Shown: positions 409 through 46,665 of the stretch, in pieces
Layout: every line of letters begins with the position of its first letter
Position numbering within the stretch: position 1 is the stretch's first letter
Program-made: the position numbers and the translations under genes
Source of the DNA: a virus
Length of the DNA stretch: 64,000 nt
Reading direction: 5' to 3' (one strand)
IMG/VR virus record: IMGVR_UViG_3300020473_002209
Coordinates: 1 to 64,000 of that record
The notes under the pieces: generated by a model
Database searches by the model: none
Told to the model about the DNA's origin: nothing
The model's input: the letters and a program-made list of their open reading frames with translations, nothing else

Positions 409-2220
409 ATGGCTGGAAAGAGTCTTACTACTGCTACATTATTTGCTCAGAAAAAGCTTCTGAACAAAGCACAGACTAGTGTTTTAAAGTCTGATGCACA
501 AGAGGTAATCGGCTCGAATATCCAGCCAGCAGCTGAAACTACATTCGGCCAAAAGATACCCACATCGCCCTCACAGACTTTGTACCTTATGCAAAGTGGA
601 AGCCTTGGTGCTCCAGCGACAGTAGAATATGTTCAGTTTGATATTGAAGCGATAAGCGGTACAAGTTATGATGCGAATTCTGTCGACACAGGTGCTGGGC
701 CTGAACCATCAACTACTGGCCCTCACGGCTACAAGCTGATATTGACTGGAAACTACGAAAGTCTTTCTTCCAATCCAAAGAGGGGGAACGGTATATTCGA
801 CAACAGCATGGACGTTTATACTACAATCGGTGGTCTTCAGATAATCCCTCCTGTATTTTCAAATGACAGTCCCAATCCGTATACAATCAAACTATATAAG
901 GGTGACCCAGCAGACCCCACAAAAGAGATCTCACTAGAAAGTGAAATTGATTGGCAGCTTGATACTTTCAATGGTATCTTGTTTGTGCAAGACTATGATG
1001 TCTCGAATGTACCTCTTTTCGCTAGGGCGTTTATCTATGTAGGTGATATGATTGATACAGTCATCACCAATACTGGTGGCGCTGATTCTGCCGCAGAGTA
1101 TCTTGTGTTGACGCCAACGGGGTCTCTTACGAATGAAAGGGCTTTTACTCCAGGTACTGGATTGTCTGCGACTGACGGTGGCGCCGGTGGCGCCTATACC
1201 GTGAAAGTGCTTGATTCCGTTTTCGCAGCTCTTACGGGCTCTGTGTTTTCAGGAACGGTTTCTTCCCCAGCATTCTCTGGATCATTGACGAAGTTACAAG
1301 ATGGAAGTAGCTATTTGATCGCTGGAAGCAATACAACGATAACAACGGGCTCTTCAGGAGCCATCACAATTTCTTCGACTGGAGGTATTGATGGTTCTGG
1401 GGCTACGAATAGAATCGCGACTTGGGCAGATACAGATACGTTGACGTCCGATGCTGACTTCACTTGGGATGGCACGACTTTATACGTATCTAGCGCTGGC
1501 ACGACCGTGAACGTCCAAGGAGATACCAACCTTAACGGAACCGTAGTGGTGAACCAAAGTGGCGCCGATAAAGACTTTAGGGTAGAAACCCAAAATAAAA
1601 GTAGCGCCTTACACGTAGATGGCGCAACAGACCAAGTGCTTCTATTTTCCGGAAGTCTTTCGGATGCTTCCGGCCATGGCTCCTCCCCAGCGGACCCTGA
1701 CCCAAGAGCGTTCACTGACACTAATTTCTTTGTGTCAGGCTCTATTGGTTCTCTAGACACTTCAAGAAGAGGTTCATCTGTTTTCGGGGGTGATGTACTT
1801 TCATCCGGTTCACTAGTTGTTAAGAACGGTATAACAGGCTCTCTAACGCAGCTTTCAGATGGTACTTCATACCTAAGGGCTGGCTCGAATATAACAATCA
1901 CATCTGGATCAGATGGTTCCGTTTCAATCGCTAGTTCAGCAACCAGTGGTGACACAAGATCAAAAGATGTTTACTTTATAAATTCTGACTATGATGCAGG
2001 TTCTGCAATCACTGTTGGTTCATCTGATTTTTCTGCCGCGTCTTATGATCCTAATAAGATCGATATATTTTTGAATGGCCAGCTTGTTCATTCTGGGTCT
2101 GTTTCGCAAGTAAACGCTGGTGATAGAGATTATTATGTGAGTTCTTCCACATCACTAAAATTCGCATTCAAGGTACAAATCGATGATATTCTTGATGTTG
2201 TCGTCTTTTCCGCAAGCTGA
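409..2220 (+). CDS. Tail fibre / virion appendage protein
   Basis: 603 aa, Gly/Ser/Thr-rich. Duplicated module GSLTxLxDG[ST]SYLxAGSNxTIT[ST]GSxG; fibre-like segment GATNRIATWADTDTL; C-terminal domain IDIFLNGQL...DY...LKFAF...DDILDVV. Confidence 0.7.
   Translation: MAGKSLTTATLFAQKKLLNKAQTSVLKSDAQEVIGSNIQPAAETTFGQKIPTSPSQTLYLMQSGSLGAPATVEYVQFDIEAISGTSYDANSVDTGAGPEPSTTGPHGYKLILTGNYESLSSNPKRGNGIFDNSMDVYTTIGGLQIIPPVFSNDSPNPYTIKLYKGDPADPTKEISLESEIDWQLDTFNGILFVQDYDVSNVPLFARAFIYVGDMIDTVITNTGGADSAAEYLVLTPTGSLTNERAFTPGTGLSATDGGAGGAYTVKVLDSVFAALTGSVFSGTVSSPAFSGSLTKLQDGSSYLIAGSNTTITTGSSGAITISSTGGIDGSGATNRIATWADTDTLTSDADFTWDGTTLYVSSAGTTVNVQGDTNLNGTVVVNQSGADKDFRVETQNKSSALHVDGATDQVLLFSGSLSDASGHGSSPADPDPRAFTDTNFFVSGSIGSLDTSRRGSSVFGGDVLSSGSLVVKNGITGSLTQLSDGTSYLRAGSNITITSGSDGSVSIASSATSGDTRSKDVYFINSDYDAGSAITVGSSDFSAASYDPNKIDIFLNGQLVHSGSVSQVNAGDRDYYVSSSTSLKFAFKVQIDDILDVVVFSAS
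1273..1938 (+). repeat. Two diverged copies (~35 aa; ~1273-1380 and ~1831-1938) of a fibre module
   Basis: SGSLTKLQDGSSYLIAGSNTTITTGSSGAITISS vs TGSLTQLSDGTSYLRAGSNITITSGSDGSVSIAS. Confidence 0.8.
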
Positions 2221-2241
2221 GTTTATTTCTAGATAATCTCC

Positions 2242-2258
2242 ATAGTTACATGTATAAT
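2242..2258 (+). promoter_or_regulatory. ATAGTTA late-type motif plus TGTATAAT (-10-like)
   Basis: catagttacatgtataat lies ~20-35 nt upstream of ATG 2278. Confidence 0.5.
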
Positions 2259-2277
2259 TGCTGAAGCGTGGATTTCA

Positions 2278-2502
2278 ATGAAAGATAACCAAAACGACCT
2301 GTATGAGACGTCAGACCTTGGTATTGCTGCATATCTCATTATTAAGGGACGGCAGCTTATACTGGCAGAAAAAAGGCCTGGCAGATATTCTTTCACTTTT
2401 TTAGGCAAGGATGAGTGTCAAAAGTTGGCTGTAGAGTATGTCAACACTGAATTTTCACGCTTCGACGCCGCACTAAAAAATCTGAAAAGCGTTATAAAAT
2501 AA
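2278..2502 (+). CDS. Small protein, DUF5659-like (possible DNA-binding)
   Basis: 74 aa with YETSDLGIAAYL...G..L...RYSFTF pattern recalled from DUF5659-type phage proteins. Confidence 0.5.
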   Translation: MKDNQNDLYETSDLGIAAYLIIKGRQLILAEKRPGRYSFTFLGKDECQKLAVEYVNTEFSRFDAALKNLKSVIK

Positions 2503-2513
2503 AGATGCGCTTC

Positions 2514-2520
2514 ATATTTA
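2514..2520 (+). promoter_or_regulatory. Putative phage late promoter (ATATTTA)
   Basis: Intergenic. Context tcATATTTAagtgtgttag closely matches tcATACTTAagtgttag at 35513-35529. Confidence 0.6.
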
Positions 2521-2609
2521 AGTGTGTTAGTCATTAGTTTCGTTTGTCACTTTGTTTGTATGTAATGTTTCTTAGTTTTTAACAACTATAAAACAAGGAA
2601 AAATATTTT

Positions 2610-4760
2610 ATGGCTTCTTTTACACAATTAAGAGTGCTCAATGCAACCGGTTCATTCGGTGTCGCAGAGGGCCAAATTAATGATGACACATCTCAGCTTG
2701 CCCAAACCGGCTCAATCGGCGCGGACAACTTAGGTGAATCATTATCTTACATGGCGGCCGCAATCCGCCGTATTCACGGTGGTGACTGGTTCTCGAACCA
2801 AGCTGTCGGTGTTTTCTCAACTACAATCAAACCAAACGCTGCGAACAAAGATATCGGTGCTACTGACGCAGAATGGGGTGATATCTTCATTGGCGATGGA
2901 AAGTCACTCAAGCTAGGTAATGGTCAAGAGTCTTTCGTCTCTGATGCTGGCCCTGGTCTTCAAATCGGCTCATCCGAAGTAATCAAGATTGGTGTTGACG
3001 CAAACACGGCAAATATCGATATTGGTGCTGTTGCACAAGCTAAAACAATCACAATCGGTGACGACGCCTCAACAAAAGTTGATGTCAACGCTCTAGCGAT
3101 TGAACTTGATGCTGGTTCAAACGGATACACGATTGACGGTGCTGGAAACTCAACACTCTCAACCAGTAACAACGGAACACTCACTATCGATTCTGCTGGT
3201 GCGTTAGTTATCGATACTGACGGTACTGATAGCATTGATATCGGTGTTGAGGCTGTTGCCAAGACAATCACGATTGGTAATGATGCTTCAACGAAAGTTG
3301 ATGTCAACGCTCTCGCGATTGAACTTGATTCTGCTGGAACACTCGTTGGTACTTCGACAACTTCAACTTCTCTGACAGCAACAACCACAATGACCGTTAC
3401 CGGTGGTGGTGTTTCCAAGTTCGGTGATGATACTGCAACACTCGATTTTGACGGCGCAGGTGCTGTTACTGAAACTGCTATGGCTTCATTTGAAATCACT
3501 CCTTCTGGCGCTTTGACAATGAAAGGTGGTGGTGCTTCCAAGTACGGTGACGATACTGCAACTCTCGATTTCGATGGTGACGGTGCTGTTACTGAAACTG
3601 GAATGACTTCATTCGTTATTAGCCCTTCTGGCGTTACTACGCTCGGTGGTGGCGGTCTCGTTACACTAGACTCTTCTGGTGCAGCAAATGACATCAATAT
3701 TGGTGTCGAAGCTGCTGCTAAGGATATTGTTATCGGTAATGCTGCTTCTGCGCTTGTTGACATTAACGCTCTTGCTGTTGATATTGACGGAGTAAATAGT
3801 GTTTCAATGGTCGGAGCAGGCGGCGCTACTTTTGGCGACGATACTAAGACTCTCATATACGACGGTTCTGGTAATCTTGATCTCACCGCTGGTACTCTGG
3901 ATATTGATGCTTCTGGTTTAACCACAATTGATGTTACCGGGAATTTGTCAATAGACTCTAGTGATAACTCCAACCTCTCTGTTACTGGAGCTGCTAAGTC
4001 TCTGGTCGTTAACGCTGCCGGCGGTGGCGCACAAACGCTCCAATTACTGTCGAGTGGTTCTGGTCCTACTGCTGTTCAAGTTAAGGGTGAAGGTGGTGTT
4101 GCGATACAAGCTGGTAACACAAAGTCGATCTCTATTGGTAGCGGCGGAACAGCTGAGGTTATGGTTACCCCAGACTCTACTGCTGCTGACTCTAAGATCA
4201 AGGTATTCGCTGAGAACGGTACCGCTGCTAACACAAGAACAGCTAACACTAATGCTCTCTCGCTACAAGCTCCTGCTGGTGGCGTGCACATTAGTGGTGA
4301 CGCTGTTATCTTGTCAGGTTCTGGTGCTCAAGGGGTTACTGTCTATGGTGATGGATCTATGACTTCTGGTAAGGGTGGTGCTGGTATGCTTTTCGGAGCT
4401 GTTGCTGATTACGGTACTTTCCGTGGTAAGTCTCTTTTCTCAGCTGGAACAACTGTTATCGGTGCTCTGAACACTCTCGCTGACAACATTACTGGTGCGA
4501 CTGCTACGATCTTCACAGGTTCTATCGCGACTAATATAGCTGCCGGTGGAAACGCCACAGTTAAGAAGCAGGCTGGTGATAACGCTGCGTTGGCTCCAGA
4601 TTGCGGAATCGAGAAAGCACAGGTATACGTCAATGGTCAGTTGCTTGTTTCGTCTTCAATCGGCGCAACAAACGATTACCGGATTTCTGCTAATGACACG
4701 ATCATATTCGAATTCGATCTACGCGTTGGTGATATGATCATGGTTGTTGACCGTTCCTGA
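2610..4760 (+). CDS. Repeat-rich fibre/appendage protein, probably high copy
   Basis: 716 aa Gly/Ala/Thr/Asp-rich with internal repeats; AAGGA RBS; strong GCT/GGT/ACT codon bias like the capsid gene; C-terminal VYVNGQLL...DY...IIFEFDLRVGDMIMV domain; followed by a terminator. Confidence 0.7.
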   Translation: MASFTQLRVLNATGSFGVAEGQINDDTSQLAQTGSIGADNLGESLSYMAAAIRRIHGGDWFSNQAVGVFSTTIKPNAANKDIGATDAEWGDIFIGDGKSLKLGNGQESFVSDAGPGLQIGSSEVIKIGVDANTANIDIGAVAQAKTITIGDDASTKVDVNALAIELDAGSNGYTIDGAGNSTLSTSNNGTLTIDSAGALVIDTDGTDSIDIGVEAVAKTITIGNDASTKVDVNALAIELDSAGTLVGTSTTSTSLTATTTMTVTGGGVSKFGDDTATLDFDGAGAVTETAMASFEITPSGALTMKGGGASKYGDDTATLDFDGDGAVTETGMTSFVISPSGVTTLGGGGLVTLDSSGAANDINIGVEAAAKDIVIGNAASALVDINALAVDIDGVNSVSMVGAGGATFGDDTKTLIYDGSGNLDLTAGTLDIDASGLTTIDVTGNLSIDSSDNSNLSVTGAAKSLVVNAAGGGAQTLQLLSSGSGPTAVQVKGEGGVAIQAGNTKSISIGSGGTAEVMVTPDSTAADSKIKVFAENGTAANTRTANTNALSLQAPAGGVHISGDAVILSGSGAQGVTVYGDGSMTSGKGGAGMLFGAVADYGTFRGKSLFSAGTTVIGALNTLADNITGATATIFTGSIATNIAAGGNATVKKQAGDNAALAPDCGIEKAQVYVNGQLLVSSSIGATNDYRISANDTIIFEFDLRVGDMIMVVDRS
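3013..3860 (+). repeat. Two interleaved repeat families inside the 2610 gene
   Basis: Type A: IDIG..A.AKTITIG.DASTKVDVNALAIELD twice plus a diverged third copy. Type B: GGG.SK[FY]GDDTATLDFDG.GAVTET.M.SF.I.PSG twice plus a partial copy. DNA-level identity is visible (e.g. aaagttgatgtcaacgctct). Confidence 0.85.
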
Positions 4761-4804
4761 GGTCCTGGTTGCTCATGAGTTTCATGGGCCTTGACCCATT
4801 TTCT

Positions 4805-4834
4805 GAGGGCCGTCGAAAGACGGCCCTCTTTTTT
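4805..4834 (+). terminator. Rho-independent terminator
   Basis: GAGGGCCGTC-GAAA-GACGGCCCTC perfect 10-bp stem with GNRA loop, followed by T6. Confidence 0.92.
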
Positions 4835-4859
4835 ATTTCTTAAAAAACGTATGTATAAT
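4832..4859 (+). promoter_or_regulatory. Sigma70-like promoter
   Basis: TTTATT-16-TATAAT directly after the terminator; GGAGG RBS before ATG 4893. Confidence 0.5.
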
Positions 4860-4892
4860 ATTGTTGTCTAGACAGTTTTTGGAGGGATAAAG

Positions 4893-5462: not shown

Positions 5463-5467
5463 TACCC

Positions 5468-15301: not shown

Positions 15302-16627
15302 GTGGCTACATTTAAAGAAATCTCAGCAGCAGACGTTAAGACATCGCGCTCTGTGCTAAATCAGCTTGTAGATGTTATTCAAGAAGATATTTCTGGGTCT
15401 GCGACTAGACGAACATACCAGATGTGGGTAACTGGTGGTATTGGTCCCGGTGTTACGTCTTCGCTGTACCAGACAGTATATGATCAAGATTTTTCGCTTC
15501 AAACCGCTAACCCCATTATGGATATGACAGCAGGTTTGTGGGTTTCCGGGTCGACAGTGCTGAGCTGCTCATCGGGGCTGGATGCCAATGGAAAAATGCT
15601 GTTTCCTTCTAGCTCATTAATGATGAGAGAAAAAGTAGACATCTATAAGCAATATGCAGCTAGTTTACTTGGGAATGCTGAATCAGCTTTTACGACCCCG
15701 TTCGGTAGCGCAACAGCTACAGACCAAGTTGACGCAGCCGTATTTCTTTCTTTCAAGAGATTATTTTCCCGTGACAAAGTAAAAAGAGAGACGTTTGCTC
15801 TTAAGATGTACGCGTCTGCTTCGGAAGTACAATTCCCAGAAGATGGTGGCCAGAACAAATTTACAGTACCAGGTGGCTCTGCTTGGGGTGGAGACAGTGG
15901 CGATACAATGTGGTTCGGAATTCCGAACCTTGATAAGACGTCTACAGGCTCTGTAAGAATTTATACAGATTTCGGAGCATCTCAAAATAGGCGCAGAACG
16001 TTTGGCGGAGAAGTTGGTGATTTGGTTGATTCATCTGATACGACAAAGAAGATTGGATTGATTTTCTACGATCAAGGTACGGTTGTGCTAAACGTCGATA
16101 GAGCCATTAACTCTAAGCAGTACGCTAGCGGAACCATCGATGGAATGACTGCGACTGCGAACAAGGATGTTCCTCGAGGAAAAGCACTCTTGGGATTTGG
16201 TAACGGTACAATAACACGTAACAATGGAAGCGAATGTCTTGGTAGTAAAGCGCAGTTTGTTCCTGACTTCTTTACATCTGGCTCCATTGACGATATCGTT
16301 ACACACTTCGCTACAACAAGATTTAGCTCTGGCTCATTGACGGCATGTACGTTCCAGAACAATACGAATATTAATTCAACCCTGATTTTCTGTAGAGCAA
16401 CAGCGGATGAGTTCAACTATTCATCAAACCCGACCTACACAGACACGAATAATAGAATTAGAGTTATCGATGAAGGGCAAGAAGACGTACAACGGTCATT
16501 CAGTTTTATAACGACTGTTGGTCTATATGACGTAAATGACAACCTATTGGCGGTTGCTAAGCTTTCAAGACCCATCGAAAAGAATGACGAAAAGGATTTG
16601 ACTGTTAGGGTAAGGCTGGACTTCTAG
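15302..16627 (+). CDS. Baseplate/fibre-attachment structural protein (tail-collar-like C-half)
   Basis: GTG start after GAGGA. C-terminus EFNYSSNPTY...FITTVGLYDVNDNLLAVAKLSRPIEK...VRVRLDF. Confidence 0.65.
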   Translation: MATFKEISAADVKTSRSVLNQLVDVIQEDISGSATRRTYQMWVTGGIGPGVTSSLYQTVYDQDFSLQTANPIMDMTAGLWVSGSTVLSCSSGLDANGKMLFPSSSLMMREKVDIYKQYAASLLGNAESAFTTPFGSATATDQVDAAVFLSFKRLFSRDKVKRETFALKMYASASEVQFPEDGGQNKFTVPGGSAWGGDSGDTMWFGIPNLDKTSTGSVRIYTDFGASQNRRRTFGGEVGDLVDSSDTTKKIGLIFYDQGTVVLNVDRAINSKQYASGTIDGMTATANKDVPRGKALLGFGNGTITRNNGSECLGSKAQFVPDFFTSGSIDDIVTHFATTRFSSGSLTACTFQNNTNINSTLIFCRATADEFNYSSNPTYTDTNNRIRVIDEGQEDVQRSFSFITTVGLYDVNDNLLAVAKLSRPIEKNDEKDLTVRVRLDF

Positions 16628-16638: not shown

Positions 16639-19230
16639 ATGTCCCTTTTTAGGCTTGACAAAAATTACTTTGACAGTTTTAAGATTCTTACGAAGCCTAT
16701 TCGGACTTTTGTTTCAGCATCAGGTGCAAATCCTGGTGCGGGCGGGGAGTCTGAGCTAGCTGGAGCTGTAAAAGTATTCCCGCTAGCTGCGATGGGAATG
16801 AAAGAGGTGCCAAAAGAGGCACCACCTGATTCTCCTCCGTTAGCAGATTCTTTAGAAGAGTATCGACTCTCTGTTTTAGCAATAACAGCGTCAGCCGACA
16901 CCACATCTATTTCGTACGATGAAATAGACCAATATATGCTTATGGTAAATTCTGCCAGCGTATCTGCTAAGCGACAAAAAGAAGTTGAGATACTACGGTT
17001 CGAGCCATCGTTTAAGTTTACCAGTGACACGTTAAGAAAAAGAGTCATCCAAGAAGTTTTATTCCCCTTTTATAGACCACAATATGGGTCAACATGTAAT
17101 TGGGCTTTTTCGAATTATCATACGTTAAATTTCTTTTATACAGATGAACCAGAAAGAACGGCTTGGGAAGAGCGCTGTGTCCCCATGGGCCCTGCACTTG
17201 CTCGAATTCCCTCTAGCTCTGTGTTGATATACCCTGCAATGTCGGCAAGCTCAGCCGGGATTGTTCGCTCTGCGAACAGTCAGCTTAACGGCTTGACGCC
17301 ATACCGCCCAACAGGCTCTTTCTCTTTTGAGTTCTATATAAACCCTCGATATACAACTTTCGAGCGAGGCGGAGAGTTCAGGGCTGGAACATTGTTTCAC
17401 ATGTCAAGCTCTTTCGCTCTTTCTTTGGTCGCGGGTGATTCGAAAGACGACAACGGGTACCTGGATGGATATCGCTTATTACTGCAATTGTCCCACAGCG
17501 CAGACATTCCGCCTTCTAAGATTGCGATGGATACCCTGGCAGCACCTTCAGCAGGTCATCTTGTGTATTCTTCATCCAACAATTCTTTGAAAAGAAATCA
17601 TTGGCACTATTGCTGCGTTCGGTGGGGTTGGCATGATCAGAACTCAACTGGATCGTTCTTTATTGACGGTGAAGAGAGGGGCACATTCTTAATTAGAGAT
17701 ATGTTCTTGACAGCCAGCGGGTTGACTCAGTCTGGAAGTTGGCTTCAAGCAACAAGGTTGGATACGGTTCGTGATTCCGGAAGAGAGCGAGGCGCTCCGG
17801 ATGCGCTCTTTGTGGGTAACTATTATGATGGTCCCAACGATGATTCACCAACTTGGGGCGGCGCTGGAACCGACTCTTATATTGCACAATTCTTTAATCC
17901 TACCGCAGCGTACAAGGATGGCATAAAAAACTTTTATCCAACAATCGATAAAGACTCTGTTGATTCTCCCACTGAACCGACGATCTATAATTTCAGTCAT
18001 CCTCTTCAAGCAGAAGTGCATGAGCTAAAGATTTACAGCCGATATCGTGATGATGGTGAGATATTAACTTCTAGCGTTGATGGGATAGAAAACCTTTATA
18101 GCGCGTCTTCGGACGGTCTTGAATTTTATGTTCCACCATTTTTCATGAAAGATACTAAGACTAGAGATATTTTTCAAACACCATTCCAGACTGTACGTGG
18201 CTCCACTGATGATCCATTCAACGTGCCATTGTCTTTTGGCGTTGGTGGTCATTATTTGAATCTAGAGAATTTCACCAAAGAGCTAGTACAAAAGCAATGG
18301 CCCCGGCTTTTTAGATTAACCGGAAGCACCATAGATACAGATACTGGGTGGCAAAGCTGTAATTACTTCTTAAATACAACGGGTAGTGTAAGAAAAAGAA
18401 ATTTGACAATTCTTCCGTGTGATAACGGATTGTTCAACCAGAATTTTGGTCTCTTGGAACAAGTTGTCACTTCCTCTGATTCCTTAAGTTTATTTGTCGA
18501 TGATATGGGAACAAGAAGGCTGAGTTTGATTAGCTTGAACAATCTCTTACCGACTGGGTCAATTGGAGAAGGGCTGCTTGGTACCGAAACAGCTGGCTCG
18601 ATATCGCAAGCTTTGCAAGGCCCAACGCCAGATGATCCCTCTGTACCAGCTGGAGCCATCCTAACGATTTATAACAGAACACGTGATCCATCGTCTAATG
18701 AAGTTTCTTTCTTCGATGCTAGTAACCTGTTTTATGGAAACAAGATCGACCCTGGCTCGTATGTTTTGACAGACCCTCTTATAACTGGCTCTTCCGGGCG
18801 TGTTAAAATTACTCTTAAAGATAACGGCCGCGGAAATCTATACAGGGCAGATGCAACAGGTAGTCACCCATTGTGGTCTACTGTTGGCACTATAATGTAC
18901 GAAGAGGGTCTTGCTGTCGTAAAGACACCGGTTATACCAAGGTTCGGAAGAGATCGATTTGAGGTCAATCTGAAGGGACAGCAGAATATCTACAACCTAA
19001 GAATGAGTGTCCCGGCTGAGGAAGGGAATTTAGATCTTTCAGTGAATCCATCATTCAAGAATTTGGCGCCATCAGGCTTGACAGCTGATTCGTTATCTGA
19101 CTTTACTTACATAACGAATGTTAACTTTTTGGATGAAAACCTTAATGTTATACTTAAGTCTCACTTCTCTCAAGCGATTGTGAAGAGGGTTGATGATAGG
19201 TTTGTCGTAAGAGTTAAGCTGGATTTTTAG
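16639..19230 (+). CDS. LamG/ConA-like domain virion protein; C-terminus paralogous to 15302
   Basis: FSFEFYINP...WHYCCVRW...FFIDG...VHELKIYSRYR is a LamG pattern. C-terminus YITNVNFLDENLNVILKSHFSQAIVKR..DRFVVRVKLDF. Confidence 0.65.
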   Translation: MSLFRLDKNYFDSFKILTKPIRTFVSASGANPGAGGESELAGAVKVFPLAAMGMKEVPKEAPPDSPPLADSLEEYRLSVLAITASADTTSISYDEIDQYMLMVNSASVSAKRQKEVEILRFEPSFKFTSDTLRKRVIQEVLFPFYRPQYGSTCNWAFSNYHTLNFFYTDEPERTAWEERCVPMGPALARIPSSSVLIYPAMSASSAGIVRSANSQLNGLTPYRPTGSFSFEFYINPRYTTFERGGEFRAGTLFHMSSSFALSLVAGDSKDDNGYLDGYRLLLQLSHSADIPPSKIAMDTLAAPSAGHLVYSSSNNSLKRNHWHYCCVRWGWHDQNSTGSFFIDGEERGTFLIRDMFLTASGLTQSGSWLQATRLDTVRDSGRERGAPDALFVGNYYDGPNDDSPTWGGAGTDSYIAQFFNPTAAYKDGIKNFYPTIDKDSVDSPTEPTIYNFSHPLQAEVHELKIYSRYRDDGEILTSSVDGIENLYSASSDGLEFYVPPFFMKDTKTRDIFQTPFQTVRGSTDDPFNVPLSFGVGGHYLNLENFTKELVQKQWPRLFRLTGSTIDTDTGWQSCNYFLNTTGSVRKRNLTILPCDNGLFNQNFGLLEQVVTSSDSLSLFVDDMGTRRLSLISLNNLLPTGSIGEGLLGTETAGSISQALQGPTPDDPSVPAGAILTIYNRTRDPSSNEVSFFDASNLFYGNKIDPGSYVLTDPLITGSSGRVKITLKDNGRGNLYRADATGSHPLWSTVGTIMYEEGLAVVKTPVIPRFGRDRFEVNLKGQQNIYNLRMSVPAEEGNLDLSVNPSFKNLAPSGLTADSLSDFTYITNVNFLDENLNVILKSHFSQAIVKRVDDRFVVRVKLDF

Positions 19231-20757: not shown

Positions 20758-23700
20758 TTGTCTTTTAAGTGCGCACATTTTGCAGATATACACTTCAGGG
20801 GTCTTACACGCCATGATGAGTACAGGAAGGTTTTTGAGCAAGCGTATGCTGAGCTGCGTATACTGAAACCTGATGTCATTTTCTTGGGCGGTGATATTGT
20901 ACATTCTAAAACGCAAGGCATCAGTCCTGAGCTTATTGAGATTTTAAGGTGGTGGTTGACATCTCTAGCAGAGATTGCTCCTGTTCATATTATTTTAGGT
21001 AATCATGACGGGTTGATGCTCAATGAAGATCGACTTGACGCCATTACCCCGATTGTTAAAACGCTGAACAATCCAGACATCTTGTTAATGAAGGGGACAG
21101 GTGTGTATCCGACTGGCGTTCCTGGATACAACTGGTGTACGTTCTGTTGCTTTGATGTTAAGTCCTGGCCGGATCTTGCCCCTCCTGCAGAGGGTGTCAA
21201 TCTAGCCCTGTATCATGGCCCAGTTAATGGGTCGCTTACAGACCAAGATTGGGAAATAAACGGTGATAGCGTCAAGGTTGACTTTTTCAAAGATTACGAC
21301 TTTGCTCTGCTTGGTGATATTCATAAGCGACAGTTTTTAACAGACACTGTCGCGTATCCAGGTTCAACCATTCAGCAAAATTATGGTGAGGATGTTGAGA
21401 AGGGTTTCTTGTTCTGGGATATTAAGGACAAGGAAGATTTTACCGTTAAGTTTATCCCACTTCATAATCAGCATGCTTTCAGGACCATTCAGTGGGCTGG
21501 TGATGTTGTTGAAACTATAGAGCAGATACCGGATGACTGGGTAGGGTCCCGGTTTCGAATAGCTCACAAGGGGATAAACCAGCTAGATTTTCGACAGCTC
21601 CAGTCTGCTTTAAAAGAAAAGTTTGATGCGTTTGAGGTCGTTTCTAAAAACGAATCTTCCGCGATGGCAGGGGGAGAGGTAGAGATAACAACCTCGATTG
21701 GAAAGATAAGTCGCAATGATCTGCGTAGCTTCTCGCAGCAAGACAAGCTGATGTCAGATTTTGTAGCAAAGATGGAACTTGAGGAAGATGATCGAGAAAG
21801 ATTGAGGAGCCTGCATAAAGACATTTTTAAGAGATGCGTTCAGCAAGCGACAAATAAGTCTCACCAGTGGAGATTACGAAAGCTTTCCTTTGATAACACT
21901 TTCGGCTATGGAGAGAGCAATGTCATCGATTTCGATGCGCTAAGTGGGATCACTGGAATCTTTGGTAAGAACAGATCAGGCAAATCTTCAATCCCTGGCA
22001 CGCTTGTTTACTCGCTCTTTAATTCTACAGATAGAGGAGTGCTTAAAAACGTACACGTAATCAACAACCGGAAAACTTTTTGTCGAGCTACAACGGATTT
22101 TTCCGTTGGCGGAGAAATGTACAGAGCTGATCGTCAAACGATAAAGAGGATCAGTAGAAAGGGCGTTGTGTCCGCACCTACGAACCTTAATCTTTTTAAG
22201 GTCGGCTCTGACGGCGAACCCATCGAAGACAACACAGGCGAACAGAGGCGTGAAACTGAGAAAGTTTTACGAACTCTTGTTGGTAGCGTGGATGATTTTC
22301 TAATGACATCGTTCGCGTCACAGGGCGAGATGAATGCATTTATTAGGGAGGGCTCAACTCGAAGAAAAGCAATACTCACCAGATTCTTAGACCTGCAGAT
22401 GTTTGATGACATGTTAAAAATAGCCAAGAACGAAATGTCTGAACTTCGAGGTGAGATGAAATCAGCTCCAGACAAGAACTGGAATTTGCTTGTTGAGGAG
22501 CAACAAGAGCTACTTTCATCATTCCATGAGGAGAGAAAAGAGGTAGAAGAAGAATTAGAAGAGCTAAAAGAAGAAAGGGATGAGTTGAAGATTAAGATGG
22601 CAGCGCTACCATCTGCTGGAAAATACACTAGAAACCAAGTCAACGCGCAACTACAGAAGCTTAATGGTCTAGAAGGAAAAGCAAATACACTGGAGAAAGA
22701 GATAATCCAATTCTCTACAGAGAGGGAAGGGGTTTCTAAAAGACTCGAAAAGATTGAAGCAATCAAAGAGCAATTTCCAATAGACGAGCTGCGGTCACAA
22801 TCATCACTCTTGACTGGGCTTAAGCAGCAGGGTGAATTGTCGGATGCAAATCTTAATCTAGAAATCCAGCGCCTTGAATCCAAAAAGAAGCTTAGCAAAA
22901 AGCTTAAGCCTTGTTCGTGCTTTGAGCATCTTCCAACATGTAGGTATGTCAAGGATTCCAAGAAGTGCGAAGGAGAAGTAGACGATCAGAAGGCCGTCGT
23001 TTCCACTGCACGAAAAGAACTCAGAGCGATTAGATCAAATTTGGAAAAGCTCGCTTCTGCTGGAATTTCTGAAAAACTAGCCAAATACGAAACGATACTT
23101 CAGCAAGAGCAAGATCTCAAGCTTGAGAATTCTGAAATGAAACTGCAGATGAAAGAACTAGAATCCAGCCACCAGGAGCTGCTAACATCTATAACATCAG
23201 GTAAAGACTTGCTTAGAGAGATGAGACTAAGATCAGTTGACGATGAGAAAGACAAGGAAGTCTTAAAGATGCAACAGGACTTGGCAAGAGTAGAGTCTCG
23301 TATATCCGAGCTTGATGGAAGTCGTCTGTATCTTGCAGAGCAGATTAGTGTCACAAAACAAAATTGCTCGAATCTTGTAGATGAAAAAGAGAAGTTCAGC
23401 GCAATCAAGTCAAGGTGGGAAACTTATAACACATTTTCTCAAGCTGTTGATAAAAAGGGCATTCCTCTAACGATTCTTTCTCTGCAGCTACCACAGATAA
23501 ATGCTGAATTAACAAAGATACTTCAGGGTGTTGTTAATTTTGATCTCTCACTTGAGGCAGACGGTGACTCAAATAATATGGACATCTTTATAGACTATGG
23601 AGATTCAAAACGGATAATAGAGTGCGGTTCTGGCATGGAAAAAATGATAGCTTCGCTTGCCCTAAGGGTCGCTCTTATCAATATCTGTAATGCACCAAGA

Positions 23701-23907
23701 AGTGATGTGCTTATAATCGATGAGGGTTTCGGCGCTTTGGATGATAAGAATATTGAGGCATGTTCTCGTCTACTAATATCTCTCAAAAAGTATTTTTCAA
23801 ATATCCTTATTATTTCTCATGTTGATGCAGTGAAAGATATCGTGGATAATGTTTTAGATATCCAGAAGGTGGGTAAGGATGCAAGAGTCACATATTCCGG
23901 AGCTTGA
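20758..23907 (+). CDS. Fused Mre11/SbcD nuclease - Rad50/SbcC ATPase (T4 gp47-gp46-like)
   Basis: TTG start. Phosphoesterase motifs ADIH, GGDIVH, GNHD, YHG, LGDIH; Walker A GKNRSGKSS; Q-loop ASQG; long coiled coil; signature GSGMEK; Walker B LIIDEG; H-loop ISH. Confidence 0.92.
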   Translation: MSFKCAHFADIHFRGLTRHDEYRKVFEQAYAELRILKPDVIFLGGDIVHSKTQGISPELIEILRWWLTSLAEIAPVHIILGNHDGLMLNEDRLDAITPIVKTLNNPDILLMKGTGVYPTGVPGYNWCTFCCFDVKSWPDLAPPAEGVNLALYHGPVNGSLTDQDWEINGDSVKVDFFKDYDFALLGDIHKRQFLTDTVAYPGSTIQQNYGEDVEKGFLFWDIKDKEDFTVKFIPLHNQHAFRTIQWAGDVVETIEQIPDDWVGSRFRIAHKGINQLDFRQLQSALKEKFDAFEVVSKNESSAMAGGEVEITTSIGKISRNDLRSFSQQDKLMSDFVAKMELEEDDRERLRSLHKDIFKRCVQQATNKSHQWRLRKLSFDNTFGYGESNVIDFDALSGITGIFGKNRSGKSSIPGTLVYSLFNSTDRGVLKNVHVINNRKTFCRATTDFSVGGEMYRADRQTIKRISRKGVVSAPTNLNLFKVGSDGEPIEDNTGEQRRETEKVLRTLVGSVDDFLMTSFASQGEMNAFIREGSTRRKAILTRFLDLQMFDDMLKIAKNEMSELRGEMKSAPDKNWNLLVEEQQELLSSFHEERKEVEEELEELKEERDELKIKMAALPSAGKYTRNQVNAQLQKLNGLEGKANTLEKEIIQFSTEREGVSKRLEKIEAIKEQFPIDELRSQSSLLTGLKQQGELSDANLNLEIQRLESKKKLSKKLKPCSCFEHLPTCRYVKDSKKCEGEVDDQKAVVSTARKELRAIRSNLEKLASAGISEKLAKYETILQQEQDLKLENSEMKLQMKELESSHQELLTSITSGKDLLREMRLRSVDDEKDKEVLKMQQDLARVESRISELDGSRLYLAEQISVTKQNCSNLVDEKEKFSAIKSRWETYNTFSQAVDKKGIPLTILSLQLPQINAELTKILQGVVNFDLSLEADGDSNNMDIFIDYGDSKRIIECGSGMEKMIASLALRVALINICNAPRSDVLIIDEGFGALDDKNIEACSRLLISLKKYFSNILIISHVDAVKDIVDNVLDIQKVGKDARVTYSGA

Positions 23908-24133
23908 TTTCTTCGTTCCCCTGGATTGTCCTGTATGCGGTCTTCTGATGCGAGACATGAGAGATTCTGTCCAATATTTAGAGACCAAGTGCTGCGTTCA
24001 GTGCTGGATATCGCTTGTAGAGCCTTTGAGAAAAATAAAAGAAGATGATGATTATTTCCCATCAGAAGAAGATATTTCAACCCATAGAGAAAAGTTAGCT
24101 CAATCCGAAATAATTAAAGACGAGGAGTTTTAG
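23879..24133 (+). CDS. Small Zn-finger protein
   Basis: CPVC...CCVQC; overlaps the end of the nuclease-ATPase gene. Confidence 0.6.
   Translation: MQESHIPELDFFVPLDCPVCGLLMRDMRDSVQYLETKCCVQCWISLVEPLRKIKEDDDYFPSEEDISTHREKLAQSEIIKDEEF
24110..24116 (+). promoter_or_regulatory. Putative late promoter (ATAATTA) opening the packaging/head operon
   Basis: Starts 27 nt upstream of ATG 24137, ahead of a GAGGAG RBS. Confidence 0.45.
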
Positions 24134-24136
24134 AAC

Positions 24137-24505
24137 ATGTTAACATTAGAAGAAGTAAGAGCGCTTGGTGAAGTCCTGAATACAACTTGGGGACGGTCTA
24201 GTAGCAATATGAAGGTTACGCATCGTTTAGAGGGTGATAACCTGGACTTACAAATACAGTCAATCGTTCACTTTGATGGCTCACGTTCATTGAACCCCCA
24301 AGTGCTTAGGGAAAGAGAGATTGCAAACGCTATTTTTACTGATGCGTTAAAGAAGGTGAAAGCAGACTTTAAAGATGCAACCGGTCGAGCACTAACCGTT
24401 AAAGAGATATCTCGTGATGATGATATTGAGTTGATTCAGGCGACTTCAGTTAGCCCAAGAAAAGTCGCGTATTTTCGGTGCCAGTTAAGACTACAAGTCA
24501 GTTGA
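24137..24505 (+). CDS. Hypothetical protein upstream of terminase
   Basis: 122 aa ORF with a good RBS. Confidence 0.75.
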   Translation: MLTLEEVRALGEVLNTTWGRSSSNMKVTHRLEGDNLDLQIQSIVHFDGSRSLNPQVLREREIANAIFTDALKKVKADFKDATGRALTVKEISRDDDIELIQATSVSPRKVAYFRCQLRLQVS

Positions 24506-33523: not shown

Positions 33524-35431
33524 ATGTCAAAGAAGTTCACACTTGACACACTGACGGAAGGTATCCGTCAACGTCACCAAGGCGAATCTAACAAGCGCCT
33601 TACCGAAAAGTGGGCTCGGACTGGTCTTCTTAGGGGTCTCGAGAGCGTCCATCGTGAAAACATGGCAACGTTGCTCGAGAACCAAGCTGGTCAGATCCTT
33701 CGTGAGCAAAACACCCTTGGTGGTGGTGGTCTCACACCTGCTGCAGCTTCCGGAGATATCCGGGGCTTCACTAACATCGCTTTCCCAATCGTCCGTCGAG
33801 TCTTCGGTGGTTTGGTTGCTAACGAGTTAGTCTCAATCCAACCTATGAGCCTTCCTTCCGGACTGCTCTTCTATCTTGACTACACCTACGGCACAAACGT
33901 CGGTGGTACTGTCGACGGTTCAGCTGGCGCTGATACCAGAAACACGTACGACGCTGGTCAGTCAATTTATAATAACCCCGCGGGAATGGGCGTTCGCTCC
34001 GGTTCTCTTGGTACCGGTGGTCAGTATGACCTTGCTGGTTCTGGTTATTCTCGTGTCCACACTGGTTCAGACAGCGGTAACGCCGGTGCATCTTGGATCC
34101 TGAACGCATTCGTTCTTGGTACAAGCTCTGCTCAAAGTCGTTCATCCACCATTTCTGGTGGTGCTGGTTCAACCGGTGCAGACGGTCGTTTCCTTCAGTT
34201 TGACCCACAGGTTACACAGAAGATTGATGATGATAGCAACCCTTACTTCTTCGCTACCGTCCCGCTTGGTGCTCTTGGCTCCAACCTTGACGTAACAGCT
34301 GTTAAGGAAATTGCACTCTTCCATACTGGTACTGTACAAGGTGACCTCGCTACTTTTGGTGAGACATTCCAGGGCGGTCAGGGAGTTTACAACCTTCGTC
34401 GTCTCAACCAGCTCGTTAAGTCTGGTTCTTCAAACGGTACTATCGAACCTGATCCAATGGCGACAGCTCAGAAGGCTGGTTCTGCTATTCTGATGGTTCT
34501 GTCCGGTACTTCGGTTTCAAGCGATGTTGGTGGTTGGAGAATTACCTATCCTAAGACCAACTCACTGAATGTTGATTCTAGTGATGGTGACACTCTTGTC
34601 GTTCCCGTCTTCGAGTCCAACTTCAGCCAGACAAACGCACAGCCTCAGATTCCTGAGATTGACATCAAGATCGAAGCGATCTCGGTTGTCGCTCAGACTC
34701 GTAAGCTTCGCGCTCGTTGGTCACCAGAACTCGCACAGGACTTGAACGCTTACCACAGCCTTGACGCTGAGGTTGAGCTTACTCAAATCCTCTCTGAGCA
34801 GATTGCTCTTGAGATCGACCGCGAGATCCTCAACGACCTCCTTATGCAGGCCGATACGAACTACTACTGGAGCCGTAAGCCCGGCGACTTCGTCAACAAG
34901 AAGTCTGGTGCTGCTGCTGTCAAGGCATCTTCCCTCGCTGGTGGACCCGCCTTTACCGGTACTGTTCGCGAATGGTACGAGACTCTTGTCGAGACCATTA
35001 TCGATGTTGCTAACGAGATTCACCGTAAGACCCTTCGTGGTTCTGCAAACTTCATCGTTGTTTCCCCTGATGTTGCTACTGTCCTTGAAGCCTCCGTGCT
35101 TTACAAGCCAGTCTACAGCATCGACGGCGACGGTCAAGTTGCTCCCGGTATGAGTCTTGGAGCCGAGAAGGTTGGTACACTGAGCAACCGCTTCACAGTC
35201 TACAAGGACCCCTACTTCCCACGCAACAAGATTCTTGTTGGGTACAAGGGTGGTAGCTACCTCGAGACTGGGTATGTATACGCTCCTTACGTGCCACTGA
35301 TCGTTACTCCTACTATCTTCGCTCCCGAAGACTTCACTCCTCGCAAGGGTGTGATGACTCGGTACGGTAAGAAGATGGTGCGTTCCGACTTCTACGGAAC
35401 AGTAACATGCCTTGGTATGGACGTCATCTAA
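33524..35431 (+). CDS. gp23: Major capsid protein (T4 gp23-like)
   Basis: MATLLENQ, FPIVRRVF, VSIQPMSLPSGLLFYLD, TRKLRARWSPELAQDLNAYH.LDAEVELT.ILSEQIALEIDREIL, YAPYVPL, F.PRKGVMTRY; strong codon bias; AAAGGAG RBS. Confidence 0.97.
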   Translation: MSKKFTLDTLTEGIRQRHQGESNKRLTEKWARTGLLRGLESVHRENMATLLENQAGQILREQNTLGGGGLTPAAASGDIRGFTNIAFPIVRRVFGGLVANELVSIQPMSLPSGLLFYLDYTYGTNVGGTVDGSAGADTRNTYDAGQSIYNNPAGMGVRSGSLGTGGQYDLAGSGYSRVHTGSDSGNAGASWILNAFVLGTSSAQSRSSTISGGAGSTGADGRFLQFDPQVTQKIDDDSNPYFFATVPLGALGSNLDVTAVKEIALFHTGTVQGDLATFGETFQGGQGVYNLRRLNQLVKSGSSNGTIEPDPMATAQKAGSAILMVLSGTSVSSDVGGWRITYPKTNSLNVDSSDGDTLVVPVFESNFSQTNAQPQIPEIDIKIEAISVVAQTRKLRARWSPELAQDLNAYHSLDAEVELTQILSEQIALEIDREILNDLLMQADTNYYWSRKPGDFVNKKSGAAAVKASSLAGGPAFTGTVREWYETLVETIIDVANEIHRKTLRGSANFIVVSPDVATVLEASVLYKPVYSIDGDGQVAPGMSLGAEKVGTLSNRFTVYKDPYFPRNKILVGYKGGSYLETGYVYAPYVPLIVTPTIFAPEDFTPRKGVMTRYGKKMVRSDFYGTVTCLGMDVI

Positions 35432-38824: not shown

Positions 38825-38825
38825 T

Positions 38826-43200: not shown

Positions 43201-43480
43201 CAAGAGACAAGTTGTTGCAGTCGCTGACAAGATTCTGTTCGAGCCCAACAACGACGCTACCCGCGCTCGTTTCATCGGTCAGGTCACACCGCTTCTCGCG
43301 ACGATTCAGTCCCAGCAGGGTATTGAGTCTTTCAAGGTCGTGATGGATGGTAGCAACAATACAACAGAAGATGTTGAGAACAACAGACTAAACGGACGCA
43401 TTGTTGTCGTACCCACTAGAGCAATCGAATTTATTGCTATAGATTTTATCATAACAAACAGTGGCGTAGATTTTGCGTAG
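40229..43480 (+). CDS. gp18: Tail sheath protein 1
   Basis: FRSPGFFEREID, GTAQKGPAFVP, PWFAPAGFNRG, LYDARINPI, FGQKT, SALDRVNVRRML, FEPN, PTRAIEFIAIDF. Confidence 0.95.
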   Translation: MAEQTFRSPGFFEREIDATARETSIVGTPAGVVGTAQKGPAFVPVTVGSMTDFINKFGDIDTNRFGPYAVQAFLANRTALTYMRVLGAGANETTTDIENTQNKGIVKNAGFKIVPATSQWNIDTALGASVGKYDDSCVQFLVAKHYVSGATDYSHPMFVDNPSFDSSGGDNVNLVRGVIFTASGSRMQILDIGETWTNILDSRASLLESNLFALAVSSSRGGAYTTQYGVTDKYGAKVAGPGVNIMTASLDPSSNNYISKVLNTDPLKFYEHQHLLYLDFAVEAEIAGLLEGSAGCIGLLSGSQDQLNNAIDGKALGSFGRFDTRYTTAQTPMIFSQPYGGTEYELFHFESLSDGEYANDNVKITIANLRASTDGNYPYPEFEVQVRKFDDSDMDPKVLETYPACNLDPGSENFIARKIGDYKARYNFDADSDAEKRIIVTGRYANVSNFVRVVMKEAVYNRLIPKDACPFGFEGLPVLKTTDSMTDNAANLKENGVVYGNVVDDTDSPGGRMWGAGDSDEANAGAALLRSIVPPLPFRFKITRGNVKNNYSGMAGDPSSREIVDRRLNWGVKWSRCPETGSMDNANLNVNASNIANPLIKAYAKMNGISLLDTVVTGSGKNAFNANKFTLARVALVGTGSGGSAKTLYWLTGSGEEVMKEACYIRNGVPDSQNYVIMDPDKTNQGRVTLATLVQSSSVKFNRFTAYTAFNIPMYGGFDGVNILNKEMYYMTDRAASTDATTGGFTGYASDEFDQGTIGLSPSYSDGSLANQSGQGRLNNSIAAYRKAAEIMTDAMTTRINILAIPGIRDAYVTDHAALKTKEYSMAMYVMDIPSWTESETRLFGGEDSSKIASASYSLPDVRETAEQFESRVFDNNYTAAYFPDVYITDSTTMNKVQVPASVAVMSALGYNDKVAYPWFAPAGFNRGGLGIVSNTAVRLTAGDRDDLYDARINPIANFSDGSFVIFGQKTCQLAKSALDRVNVRRMLLEVKRQVVAVADKILFEPNNDATRARFIGQVTPLLATIQSQQGIESFKVVMDGSNNTTEDVENNRLNGRIVVVPTRAIEFIAIDFIITNSGVDFA

Positions 43481-43481
43481 T

Positions 43482-43488
43482 ATAGTTA
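43482..43488 (+). promoter_or_regulatory. Putative late promoter (ATAGTTA)
   Basis: Sits in the 35-nt gap between the two sheath genes. Confidence 0.65.
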
Positions 43489-43515
43489 AAAAGAGATTAC
43501 AGGAGATTATTTCAA

Positions 43516-46500: not shown

Positions 46501-46665
46501 CAGCAGGGTCTTGAGAGATTCAAGGTTCAGATTGATGCAACAACTACAACACAGGCTGATATTGAGAATAATACAGTAAGAGGAAAGATATTCTTACAGC
46601 CTGTCCGTTCGGTCGAATTTATATCACTAGATTTCGTGGTAACTAATGCCGGCATGGACATTTAA
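43516..46665 (+). CDS. gp18: Tail sheath protein 2
   Basis: FKSPGVSTKEID, PWFAPAGFTRG, FGQKTL...SALDRVNVRRLL, FEPN, PVRSVEFISLDF. Confidence 0.95.
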   Translation: MAELTFKSPGVSTKEIDLSGPTVTGPSGVPAGVIGTADQGRAFVPITMATFSDFVAEFGNTDGTKFGPMAMRQWLQYTQAGTYLRVLGAGDGKKRAASGAVTNAGFIVGEQLPKGNGILGRNTYAGAGTSGGGALGRASFLAVCMSAPDGTTLPNTSNTYLTEAGLQASQPILRGVILAASGVLPALSASRAATATASTGSRGEAGYGGGLFSGNNIPLGAPTAQNLCAATSFGTAATKNAGSTLGAVDIAGGKQEFVLLLNGHTHTDSFPTVITASFDPQAPNYLANVLNTDPMDLQKAGHYLYTHYPVYSSFAVPTGSGLMNYNYEPAVDGLVGSTQKKMEDIAFLVTSSLGRNAGSATIPNFEGFRDRFRTAAAPKVISQNYGGSPKDLFRIWCLDDGAIGNHRVKISIDNIVKSTNVNNKYCVFDLAVRDFEDTDDLPVVIEKFPKLSLNPLDERYIARVIGDYHLYYDFDKRVGSQKLVVEGSYPNRSNYIRVEPVDALDKGEIPADAVPCGFRGIDHLVTSGSSIFKMQSADFAGDIGLGAFASADIVQPPVPLRSTVARGLSPRKVLASQLYWGIQFEKKQNRKEPNKSTVYDGSMEQWGTYFPNYAQTTQAALVGDNAGVADAGGTILDCDRFNNNKFSLENIQVIVTSADKADSSQWAAATYRRNGAAESMEDVDGTTKTTASGLTRLLSVEKDFGLSSARKFLKFSFLAQGGFDGLNIFDRNKFEMTSTACKREMDDSEQGETNGPTVASYRKALDILEQRADVNIQLLAIPGIRHESVTDYAITTVEDRFDALYIMDIEQTDTLGKVVTGSASIVSVTNTVADFQSRNLDSSFAAAYFPDVIMEEVNTGGNVVAPASVAVLGAFGLNDKIAYPWFAPAGFTRGALKHVREASVKLNRDNLDALYDVDINPITAFPQSKEVVVFGQKTLLAAQSALDRVNVRRLLIDIRRQVRAIGDTFLFEPNREATLARFSAAVNPILARIQQQQGLERFKVQIDATTTTQADIENNTVRGKIFLQPVRSVEFISLDFVVTNAGMDI

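Follow-up and report, generated by a model that had tools for sequence, protein, structure and literature searches.

Outward-facing virion proteins encoded in a 64,000-nucleotide stretch of viral DNA (IMG/VR record IMGVR_UViG_3300020473_002209, positions 1 to 64,000; hereafter the window) contain the ordered tripeptide [ST]-G-S well above the number expected from their composition. The excess lies in the non-core parts of these proteins; it is lineage-specific and not general to T4-like virions. Comparison with related phages suggests that the tripeptide could be an acceptor tag read by a phage-encoded modification system, most likely glycosylation begun by an adjacent pair of GT4-type glycosyltransferases (GTs), a reading that we advance tentatively.

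The window opens a viral contig of 126,620 bases (G000), and all large open reading frames (ORFs) of these first 64 kb are on the + strand. The contig is partial; the full genome is probably near 300 kb, because a close relative (G001, 119 kb) was rated 37% complete. Searches of the window ORFs against PHROGs and Pfam identified a T4-type large terminase, a portal, a prohead protease and a Gp23-type capsid protein, together with a neck adaptor, two tandem sheath paralogues, a tube and a baseplate hub. By capsid protein, the nearest cultured phages are Flavobacterium phage immuto, Microcystis phage Mel-JY01 and Rhodothermus phage RM378.

An ordered tripeptide in outward-facing virion proteins

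An earlier inspection of the DNA made without database searches (the sequence-only reading) had proposed that the outer virion proteins are studded with [ST][GAS]S, here called the wide motif; the narrow motif is [ST]GS. Since this motif had been picked after looking at the data, all tripeptides (about 8000) were ranked against each protein's own composition in 40 window proteins. TGS took the first rank (32 seen, 9.7 expected) and SGS the twelfth (28 against 12.0), the words above SGS being mostly triplets of rare residues with one to five occurrences. The other members of the wide class were near expectation (observed/expected: TAS 14/9.7, SAS 13/12.5, TSS 10/10.9, SSS 19/14.9), as were all of the reordered words SGT, GST, GTS, STG and TSG. 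The bulk signal is the ordered word [ST]-G-S. Of the class originally proposed, the Gly-centred part stood up in bulk; Ala or Ser as the middle residue holds only at individual alignment columns, as a variant within one protein family, that of the 863-amino-acid (863-aa) protein described below.

The excess persisted against shuffles of whole proteins and of short blocks, in agreement with the sequence-only reading. With shuffling within blocks of 10 residues, 60 narrow sites in the window stood against 25.6 ± 4.8. The shuffle means were 25.6, 24.3 and 23.4 for blocks of 10, 20 and 40 residues (z 7.2 to 8.0), and none of the 1000 shuffles per block size gave more than 43 sites. Plain clustering of Ser, Thr and Gly in loops is ruled out by these z-values of at least 7.2 and by the reordered tripeptides being at expectation. 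Over the entire contig 71 narrow sites were counted with 32.2 expected, and its non-virion second half (rows summed from ORF 64191 on) contained 11 with about 10 expected.

Residue specificity was counted in 11 enriched proteins, which were picked post hoc. Following [ST]G, the third position was Ser in 51 cases (10.6 expected) versus Thr in 6 (9.8 expected). GS was preceded by Thr 29 times (5.0) and by Ser 22 times (5.5), and the residue between [ST] and Ser was Gly in 51 cases (10.6), Ala in 17 (9.2) and Ser in 15 (10.7). The flanks are hydrophobic: Leu occupies position -3 in 15 of 50 sites, and 58% of the sites have a hydrophobic residue at -2 and 52% one at +1; positions -2 and -1 are likewise hydrophobic in the 495 sites of the sheath representatives introduced below. 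The sites are isolated tripeptides within such flanks, and no long serine-rich dipeptide repeat region that might act as acceptor was seen. A word at the DNA level is ruled out: both the TCN and the AGY family of serine codons occur at the sites, with all third positions, so that the signal resides in the protein and not in the DNA. The motif is therefore ordered and above composition, and neither local composition nor DNA words explain it.

The enriched proteins are listed in Table 1. Counts of the wide motif made by hand in the sequence-only reading proved right or within one in all cases checked, including the tape measure (3, where about 2 had been given). For the fibre-like protein at 409, none of 2000 block shuffles reached the 11 narrow sites. 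This protein is internally duplicated: aligned with residues 391-603, residues 201-390 score 140 (57 ± 9.9 in shuffles), and the alignment pairs sites 290/476 and 313/499; 3 of the 11 narrow sites are duplication copies. The excess in ORF 2610 is weak when taken alone (128 of 2000 block shuffles reach 5). In the 441-aa protein, where the wide motif gave z 3.8, the narrow count was reached by 3 of 2000 block shuffles, and four of the five sites are kept across all 4 distinct aligned sequences. The 863-aa protein has the strongest wide signal, with 19 sites against 3.7 ± 1.9 in whole-protein shuffles (z 8.3).

The wide sites of the neck protein are STGSN at residue 83, VSGSI at 120, VSSSR at 148 and LTGSS at 244; the first two are kept in 96% and 87% of 23 sequences. 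All six narrow sites of sheath 1 precede residue 860 and lie outside the conserved core (3 of 2000 block shuffles reach this count), and the excess of sheath 2 is weak alone (53 of 2000). In the capsid protein the wide sites are RSGSL at 159, HTGSD at 180, GTSSA at 200 and KSGSS at 300. All four precede the long stretch of the Gp23 match (367-625). Site 159 is kept in 87% of 15 sequences; the capsid excess is insignificant by itself, 3 sites being reached by 358 of 2000 shuffles in 10-residue blocks. Enrichment had been claimed for every outer protein named. The excess lies in the fibre, the 441-aa and 863-aa proteins, the neck and both sheaths, but capsid protein and sheath 2 are weak alone under block shuffles.

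Internal and enzymatic proteins are almost free of the wide motif, as had been stated: it is absent from the nuclease-ATPase, the portal and the tube and occurs once in the hub. The narrow motif is not enriched in the tape measure (1/1.25), ORF 54581 (0/1.40), the hub (0/1.07), ORFs 6410 and 12728, the portal or any of the non-virion genes. An actual depletion of internal proteins was considered and rejected, since 1/5.58 in G000 is set against 5/6.03 in the related genome G005, which amounts to a mere absence of excess. The [ST]GS excess is thus confined to outward-facing virion proteins, in their non-core parts. BLASTP gave no sign of a single domain family carrying the motif through the virion: among the window virion proteins it recovered the sheath pair and two short C-terminal matches only. 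These matches join neighbouring genes (15302-16627 with 16639-19230, and 409-2220 with 2610-4760), which have in common only their last 42 to 49 residues (49 in the fibre pair) at 38% and 33% identity; the stretch may be a common attachment or chaperone-recognition module.

Table 1. Virion proteins of the window that carry the tripeptide (narrow, [ST]GS; wide, [ST][GAS]S; expected numbers from composition).
Feature	Position	Strand	Sites
Fibre-like protein, 603 aa	409..2220	+	11 narrow, 2.3 expected, often [ST]GS[LIV]; 13 wide
Gly/Ala/Thr-rich fibre-like protein, 716 aa	2610..4760	+	5 sites, 2.0 expected
Virion protein of no known family, 441 aa	15302..16627	+	5 narrow, 0.8 expected; 8 wide
863-aa protein, concanavalin-A/pentraxin-like jelly roll	16639..19230	+	8 narrow, 1.2 expected; 19 wide
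Part of major capsid protein (about residues 150-310 of ORF 33524-35431)	33971..34453	+	all 4 wide sites of the protein, 3 narrow
Neck or head-tail adaptor protein, 391 aa	36963..38138	+	3 narrow, 0.34 expected; 4 wide
Tail sheath paralogue 1, 1083 aa	40229..43480	+	6 narrow, 1.0 expected; 11 wide (z 4.5)
Tail sheath paralogue 2, 1049 aa	43516..46665	+	4 narrow, 1.0 expected; 10 wide (z 4.3)

Conservation, structural context and lineage distribution

The family of the 863-aa protein is large (536 matches). Its 113 full-length homologues, which are 40 to 96% identical, contain 1060 sites where 136.4 are expected, a 7.8-fold excess, with 4 to 14 sites per sequence and many columns partly occupied. 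Three columns are near-fixed in these sequences, at residue 337 (97%), at 716 (93%) and near 265 (94%). At several columns the middle residue varies, TGS and SGS alternating with TAS, TSS, SAS and SSS; column 561, for example, is occupied by SGS in 47 sequences, TAS in 34, TGS in 13 and SAS in 11.

The excess is also present in relatives of the sheath and neck proteins, drawn from 74 viral loci (206/55.7 and 153/53.5 for the two sheaths, 90/11.2 for 35 neck relatives). Among 150 sheath representatives of at most 50% mutual identity, TGS exceeded expectation 2.8 to 3.9-fold and SGS 2.5 to 2.8-fold in each of the three distance bins. Their conserved inner core, defined as the part aligned to the region that matches solved sheath structures, has a single site with 12.1 expected, and their outer parts have 416 with 125.3 expected; the parts that do not align to the query have 78 with 47.0 expected. 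Sites thus occupy accessible parts, accessibility being judged as outer part versus core, and they shift between homologues with their density kept. The two sheath paralogues of G000 carry sites at different columns, and at these columns the sheaths of the huge phage LR756508 have other residues or gaps, so that the fold tolerates other residues at the site positions. The density of the word is kept on the outer parts while the fold does not require [ST]GS at given positions. The tandem paralogues themselves are 35% identical, each longer than 1000 aa, and are arranged in the same way in G005 and LR756508; in the window sheaths, the match to solved sheath cores is limited to about the last 220 residues.

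The structural context of 14 narrow sites was inspected in AlphaFold models of the 863-aa protein (pLDDT 78.4) and of sheath 1 (pLDDT 83.6). Only one site, sheath 183, is modelled in a tight hairpin loop. Sheath sites 301 and 639 and sites 225, 337 and 561 of the 863-aa protein are placed at the ends or starts of strands, sites 581, 617 and 652 at helix N-caps, and sites 365, 580 and 639 of the 863-aa protein, 716 and 740 in longer or low-confidence loops. What the sites share in these models is a position at the end of a secondary-structure element and not one type of turn. A uniform explanation by two-residue beta-hairpin turns (Gly followed by Ser or Thr) does not account for such mixed contexts. 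Site 337 lies inside a Laminin_G_3 match and in the model opens the second strand of a β-hairpin. No solved structure was found for the 863-aa family by sequence, and the fold search yielded only concanavalin-A/pentraxin-like jelly rolls.

To compare lineages, ranks were determined genome-wide among tripeptides expected at least 3 times. In G000 TGS is first and SGS eleventh. In G005, a syntenic genome of 280.9 kb that is 92% complete, they rank first and second (total 189/79.3). SGS is first and TGS fourth in immuto (64/24.2 and 53/23.8, respectively); in RM378, where the excess is 53/19.6, SGS is fourth and TGS fifth, with SGT and TGT at expectation as in G000. No excess exists in the huge phages LR756511 (TGS 463rd, SGS 593rd) and LR756508 (576th and 180th), in which not one protein is significant; the capsid protein of LR756508 is 52% identical to that of G000. 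T4 has 9 sites in 32 proteins where 13.1 are expected (TGS 2 against 6.6), and cyanophage P-HM1 has 9 in 15 proteins with 8.3 expected. In Mel-JY01 the sheath contains 4 sites (0.95 expected), and the genome-wide ranking is dominated by an 805-aa low-complexity Ser/Gly/Thr repeat ORF (635-3052) with 112 [ST]G[ST] words against 31.8. A 373-aa protein of immuto (135031-136152) carries 12 [ST]GS sites, some of them in tandem hexapeptides ([ST]-G-S-hydrophobic-x-x).

Glycosyltransferase genes on the contig and in its relatives

The sequence-only reading had placed the modifying enzyme outside the window, and indeed no sugar enzyme of any kind was found within these 64 kb. A search for glycosyltransferases elsewhere gave a divided answer. 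In all three relatives that cover the region (G005, G006 and G007), a pair of adjacent GT4-type genes (Glycos_transf_1; the two members are termed GT-A and GT-B) is present together with several GT2 genes; the sole GT of the G000 contig, on the other hand, looks like a DNA glycosyltransferase. Six further relatives are uninformative for the locus, three for want of the flanking baseplate gene (G001, G008 and G009) and three as small fragments (G002, G003 and G004).

In G005 the GT4 pair (51284-52549 and 52552-53727) closes a glycan locus of 17 kb (36.8-53.7 kb), which also contains four GT2 genes, GT10 and GT11 fucosyltransferase-like genes, two sulfotransferases, two DegT aminotransferases, a GDP-mannose dehydratase and an epimerase. 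It is flanked by fibre genes, one of them with an S74 chaperone domain, and by a gp25-like baseplate gene; upstream of the fibre genes, PrkA-like and SpoVR-like genes adjoin each other (21163-24408). The 21 G005 ORFs between 36.8 and 55.1 kb have no membrane-like segment (maximum 19-residue hydropathy 1.29), and among the locus ORFs submitted to Pfam there was neither a lipid-carrier transferase nor a flippase. GTs free of membrane or lipid-carrier machinery are present in G005, G006 and G007, and the partial G000 contig has only its T4 beta-glucosyltransferase-like GT. Since the start of the contig corresponds to about 79 kb in G005, a glycan locus at the G005 position would fall off its end. 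When GT-A and GT-B were compared with the sequences of solved structures by phmmer, generic GT4 enzymes were matched (TreT, B736L, BshA-like), and up to an E-value of 1 no chain named GtfA or GtfB appeared. B736L, matched by GT-A (E 4.6e-6), is a glycosyltransferase of PBCV-1.

Of 50,697 phage records, GT-A matched nine (immuto four times, TJE1 twice, Mel-JY01, LR756508 and RM378) and GT-B five (four of immuto, one of Mel-JY01). Immuto and Mel-JY01 have the two genes side by side. The ORF that comes after GT-A in RM378 (425 aa) shows weak, collinear similarity to GT-B (pair E-value 7e-4). In LR756508 GT-A is present without GT-B, and in LR756511 both are missing. The pair and the motif excess occur together in G005, immuto, RM378 (with its weak GT-B) and, weakly, Mel-JY01. 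There is no excess in LR756508, which has GT-A alone, or in LR756511, T4 and P-HM1 without a GT (the latter two not being among the GT-A or GT-B matches).

The one GT-like gene on the rest of the contig (84048-85103) lies between a UDP-galactopyranose mutase and a kinase-like gene, in a block (81874-87085) of a ThyA-like protein (343 aa), the mutase, the GT-B protein, a dNMP-kinase-like protein, a GalE-like epimerase and a cupin. By comparison with a protein atlas it resembles T4 beta-glucosyltransferase. Across 28 viral loci, GTs of this type nearly always have genes for PolIII-alpha and for ThyA-like, kinase-like and epimerase proteins beside them; two of the loci end early at contig edges, and one has no kinase-like gene and no GT called as an ORF. 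The mutase is absent from 10 loci whose GT is 48-60% identical. Judged by this gene content, the block looks like a DNA hypermodification module, perhaps for a hydroxymethyl-pyrimidine glycosylated with a galactose-derived sugar. This GT is unlikely as a protein modifier, being similar to T4 beta-glucosyltransferase and situated among genes of DNA metabolism.

Beyond the window, three adjoining genes of the contig (120908-124598) encode a methyltransferase of FkbM type, a Sulfotransfer_2 sulfotransferase and a 618-aa protein that has DUF192 at its N-terminus; they may be glycan-tailoring genes distant from the position of the G005 glycan locus. The contig also encodes a zeta-toxin/AAA_33-like kinase fold. 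In the window, a single 1049-aa ORF (20758-23907) fuses an SbcD-like phosphoesterase with an SbcC/Rad50-like ATPase. A family-A DNA polymerase domain (61603-62799) and a 3'-5' exonuclease, RNase_T (63337 to contig position 64179), are separate ORFs with a 161-aa ORF between them, and the contig encodes a PolIII alpha subunit as well (78173-81829).

A modification tag or a structural habit

The tripeptide had been suggested to be the recognition site of an enzyme that coats the particle surface. Its ordered, outer-confined and lineage-limited occurrence and the glycan locus of the relatives are consistent with this suggestion; the link between enzyme and motif is one that we infer. In our preferred reading, Φ-[ST]-G-S-Φ (Φ, hydrophobic; Ala or Ser sometimes for Gly) would be an acceptor tag for a phage-encoded modification system, most likely glycosylation begun by the GT4 pair. 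Arguing from comparative sequence data, we hold this tentatively and put its chance slightly short of even. Should the tag be modified at all, and by a glycan, the candidate reader would be the conserved adjacent GT4 pair, which in the relatives lies inside the virion gene block by soluble sugar-nucleotide enzymes, GT2, GT10 and GT11 enzymes and sulfotransferases; a corresponding locus would then be expected in this genome too. The GT4 pair would place the first sugar on a hydroxyl of the tag in the cytoplasm, the third-position Ser being the most specific residue. The remaining transferases would lengthen and tailor the glycan, and the assembled fibres, baseplate periphery, neck, outer sheath domains and capsid insertion would end up with a sugar coat.

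Several observations count against this proposal. The locus and its GT4 pair are off this contig, and their presence is extrapolated by synteny with G005 (mean identity of the shared proteins, 58%). The co-occurrence of pair and excess spans about nine genomes, which are related to each other. Mel-JY01 has the GT4 pair yet a weak excess (9/6.7 in the 30 kb examined), and the actinophage TJE1, with a GT-A homologue of 23% identity, has none (4 against 3.5 in 17 proteins). Next to the GT4 pair, nuclease genes are conserved (PD-(D/E)XK in G005 and LR756508, a 5'-3' exonuclease in RM378), so that its target could be something other than virion proteins. In the 863-aa family, wide sites are kept only moderately better than average tripeptides (0.53 versus 0.39). 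The invariant residues of this family (G338 and S339; T716, G717 and S718, at least 90%) would also fit a structural role, as would the hydrophobic flanks.

These last points lead to the main alternative, a structural habit of the lineage: [ST]-G-S would be the favoured strand end, tight turn or helix cap in the outer-domain folds and fibre repeats of this clade, passed on with those domains and maintained by normal folding constraints while nothing reads it. Turns and helix caps commonly contain Gly, Ser and Thr. Both models place the sites at the ends of structural elements, hydrophobic residues frame the motif in the window and in the sheath representatives, and site 337 within its Laminin_G_3 match is almost invariant; inheritance with domains would also account for the fibre sites that recur by duplication and for the tandem hexapeptides of immuto. 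On the other hand, no single local structure unites the sites, of which one in 14 is a tight hairpin loop. Turn propensities alone predict neither the preference for Ser over Thr at the third position (51 versus 6) nor the lack of enrichment of the reordered words. The paralogous and LR756508 sheaths hold other residues at the same columns, and the excess extends to sheath parts that do not align to the query (78/47.0). By BLASTP the enriched proteins share no domain family beyond the sheath pair and the two short C-terminal stretches, and the virion proteins of T4 and P-HM1 have no excess. On balance we consider such a habit unlikely, though it deserves serious attention.

The tag could also be read by something other than a glycosyltransferase, such as a kinase-like modifier or a non-covalent binder (a decoration protein, an assembly chaperone or a host surface component). 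The statistics of the motif demand a reader and not specifically a glycosyltransferase, and the methyltransferase, the sulfotransferase and the kinase fold of the contig, as well as PrkA in G005, are at hand. None of these candidates was tied to the motif by the tests made, however, and only the GT4 pair was seen to travel with the excess; we regard this alternative as improbable. An artefact of composition, repeats or post hoc choice can hardly be the explanation: the motif was picked from viewed data, four of the six tripeptides of the original class are unenriched, capsid, ORF 2610 and sheath 2 are weak alone and some fibre sites are duplicates, but TGS heads the unbiased ranking in two genomes and [ST]GS words are in the top five in two more, local shuffles give z of at least 7.2 and never exceed 43 against 60, and the excess is 7.8-fold in the 113 homologues of the 863-aa protein.

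Taken further, the acceptor-tag reading would describe a system common to a clade of aquatic and thermophilic T4-like phages (this phage, G005, immuto and RM378). A three-residue sequon, Φ-[ST]-G-S-Φ, would be spread over the exposed domains of most outer virion proteins, and a conserved two-gene GT4 module would read it and start a glycan coat that is variable, made by the phage and in part sulfated or fucosylated. Proteins would then be O-glycosylated in the bacterial cytoplasm by a general system of viral origin. For this wider version, which again draws on comparative sequence data, our confidence is lower, and we call it possible but doubtful.

According to the available part of one source (PMC12582341, citing Freeman et al. 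2023, Cell Host Microbe), mycobacteriophage virions are glycosylated by phage-encoded glycosyltransferases, and on this partial account theirs is the closest published case. Soluble phage-encoded glycosyltransferases are common to both, as are virion proteins as acceptors, proposed here for the T4-like phages. The mycobacteriophage cases are siphoviruses of Actinobacteria, for which the same partial account reports no dispersed tripeptide tag; here we are dealing with a T4-like myovirus, many acceptors, a short ordered motif and a GT4 pair. A literature search on phage virion glycosylation, limited in depth, found no description of such a tripeptide tag.

Among cellular systems, the O-GlcNAc transferase pair GtfA/GtfB glycosylates the serine-rich-repeat adhesins of streptococci and staphylococci. 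It, too, is an adjacent, cytoplasmic pair of GT4 type and GT-B fold that acts on Ser-x-Ser-like acceptors before export or assembly. The search of solved structures (E up to 1) gave no sequence relationship, and the phage acceptors would be isolated tripeptides with hydrophobic flanks; the analogy is one of mechanism only. The general O-glycosylation of Bacteroidota uses the sequon D-[ST]-[ALIVMT] and acts outside the cytoplasm on exported proteins. It resembles the proposed system in having a three-residue Ser/Thr sequon on many proteins, and the nearest cultured relatives infect Flavobacterium and Rhodothermus. However, the word enriched here, [ST]-G-S, is a different motif, and phage particles assemble in the cytoplasm. 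Chloroviruses are giant viruses of eukaryotes with N-linked glycans at atypical sequons, and to our knowledge the capsid protein is their sole known acceptor. Like the phages, they would have sugar machinery of their own that is independent of host membrane pathways, and their B736L is the enzyme matched by GT-A. As described in the accessible parts of PMC9614988 and PMC5408694, their capsid is glycosylated by virus-encoded cytoplasmic glycosyltransferases.

If the tripeptide is a structural habit only, its use would be limited to marking the exposed domains of this clade. With three carriers in culture (immuto, RM378 and Mel-JY01), the tag hypothesis is directly testable, and if it is true, tag and enzymes would make a compact, portable pair for glycoengineering. 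It would then also follow that abundant environmental T4-like phages coat their fibres, baseplate, neck, sheath and capsid with self-made sugars, with effects on adsorption, on stickiness to marine polymers, on recognition by hosts and grazers and on the stability of the virion.

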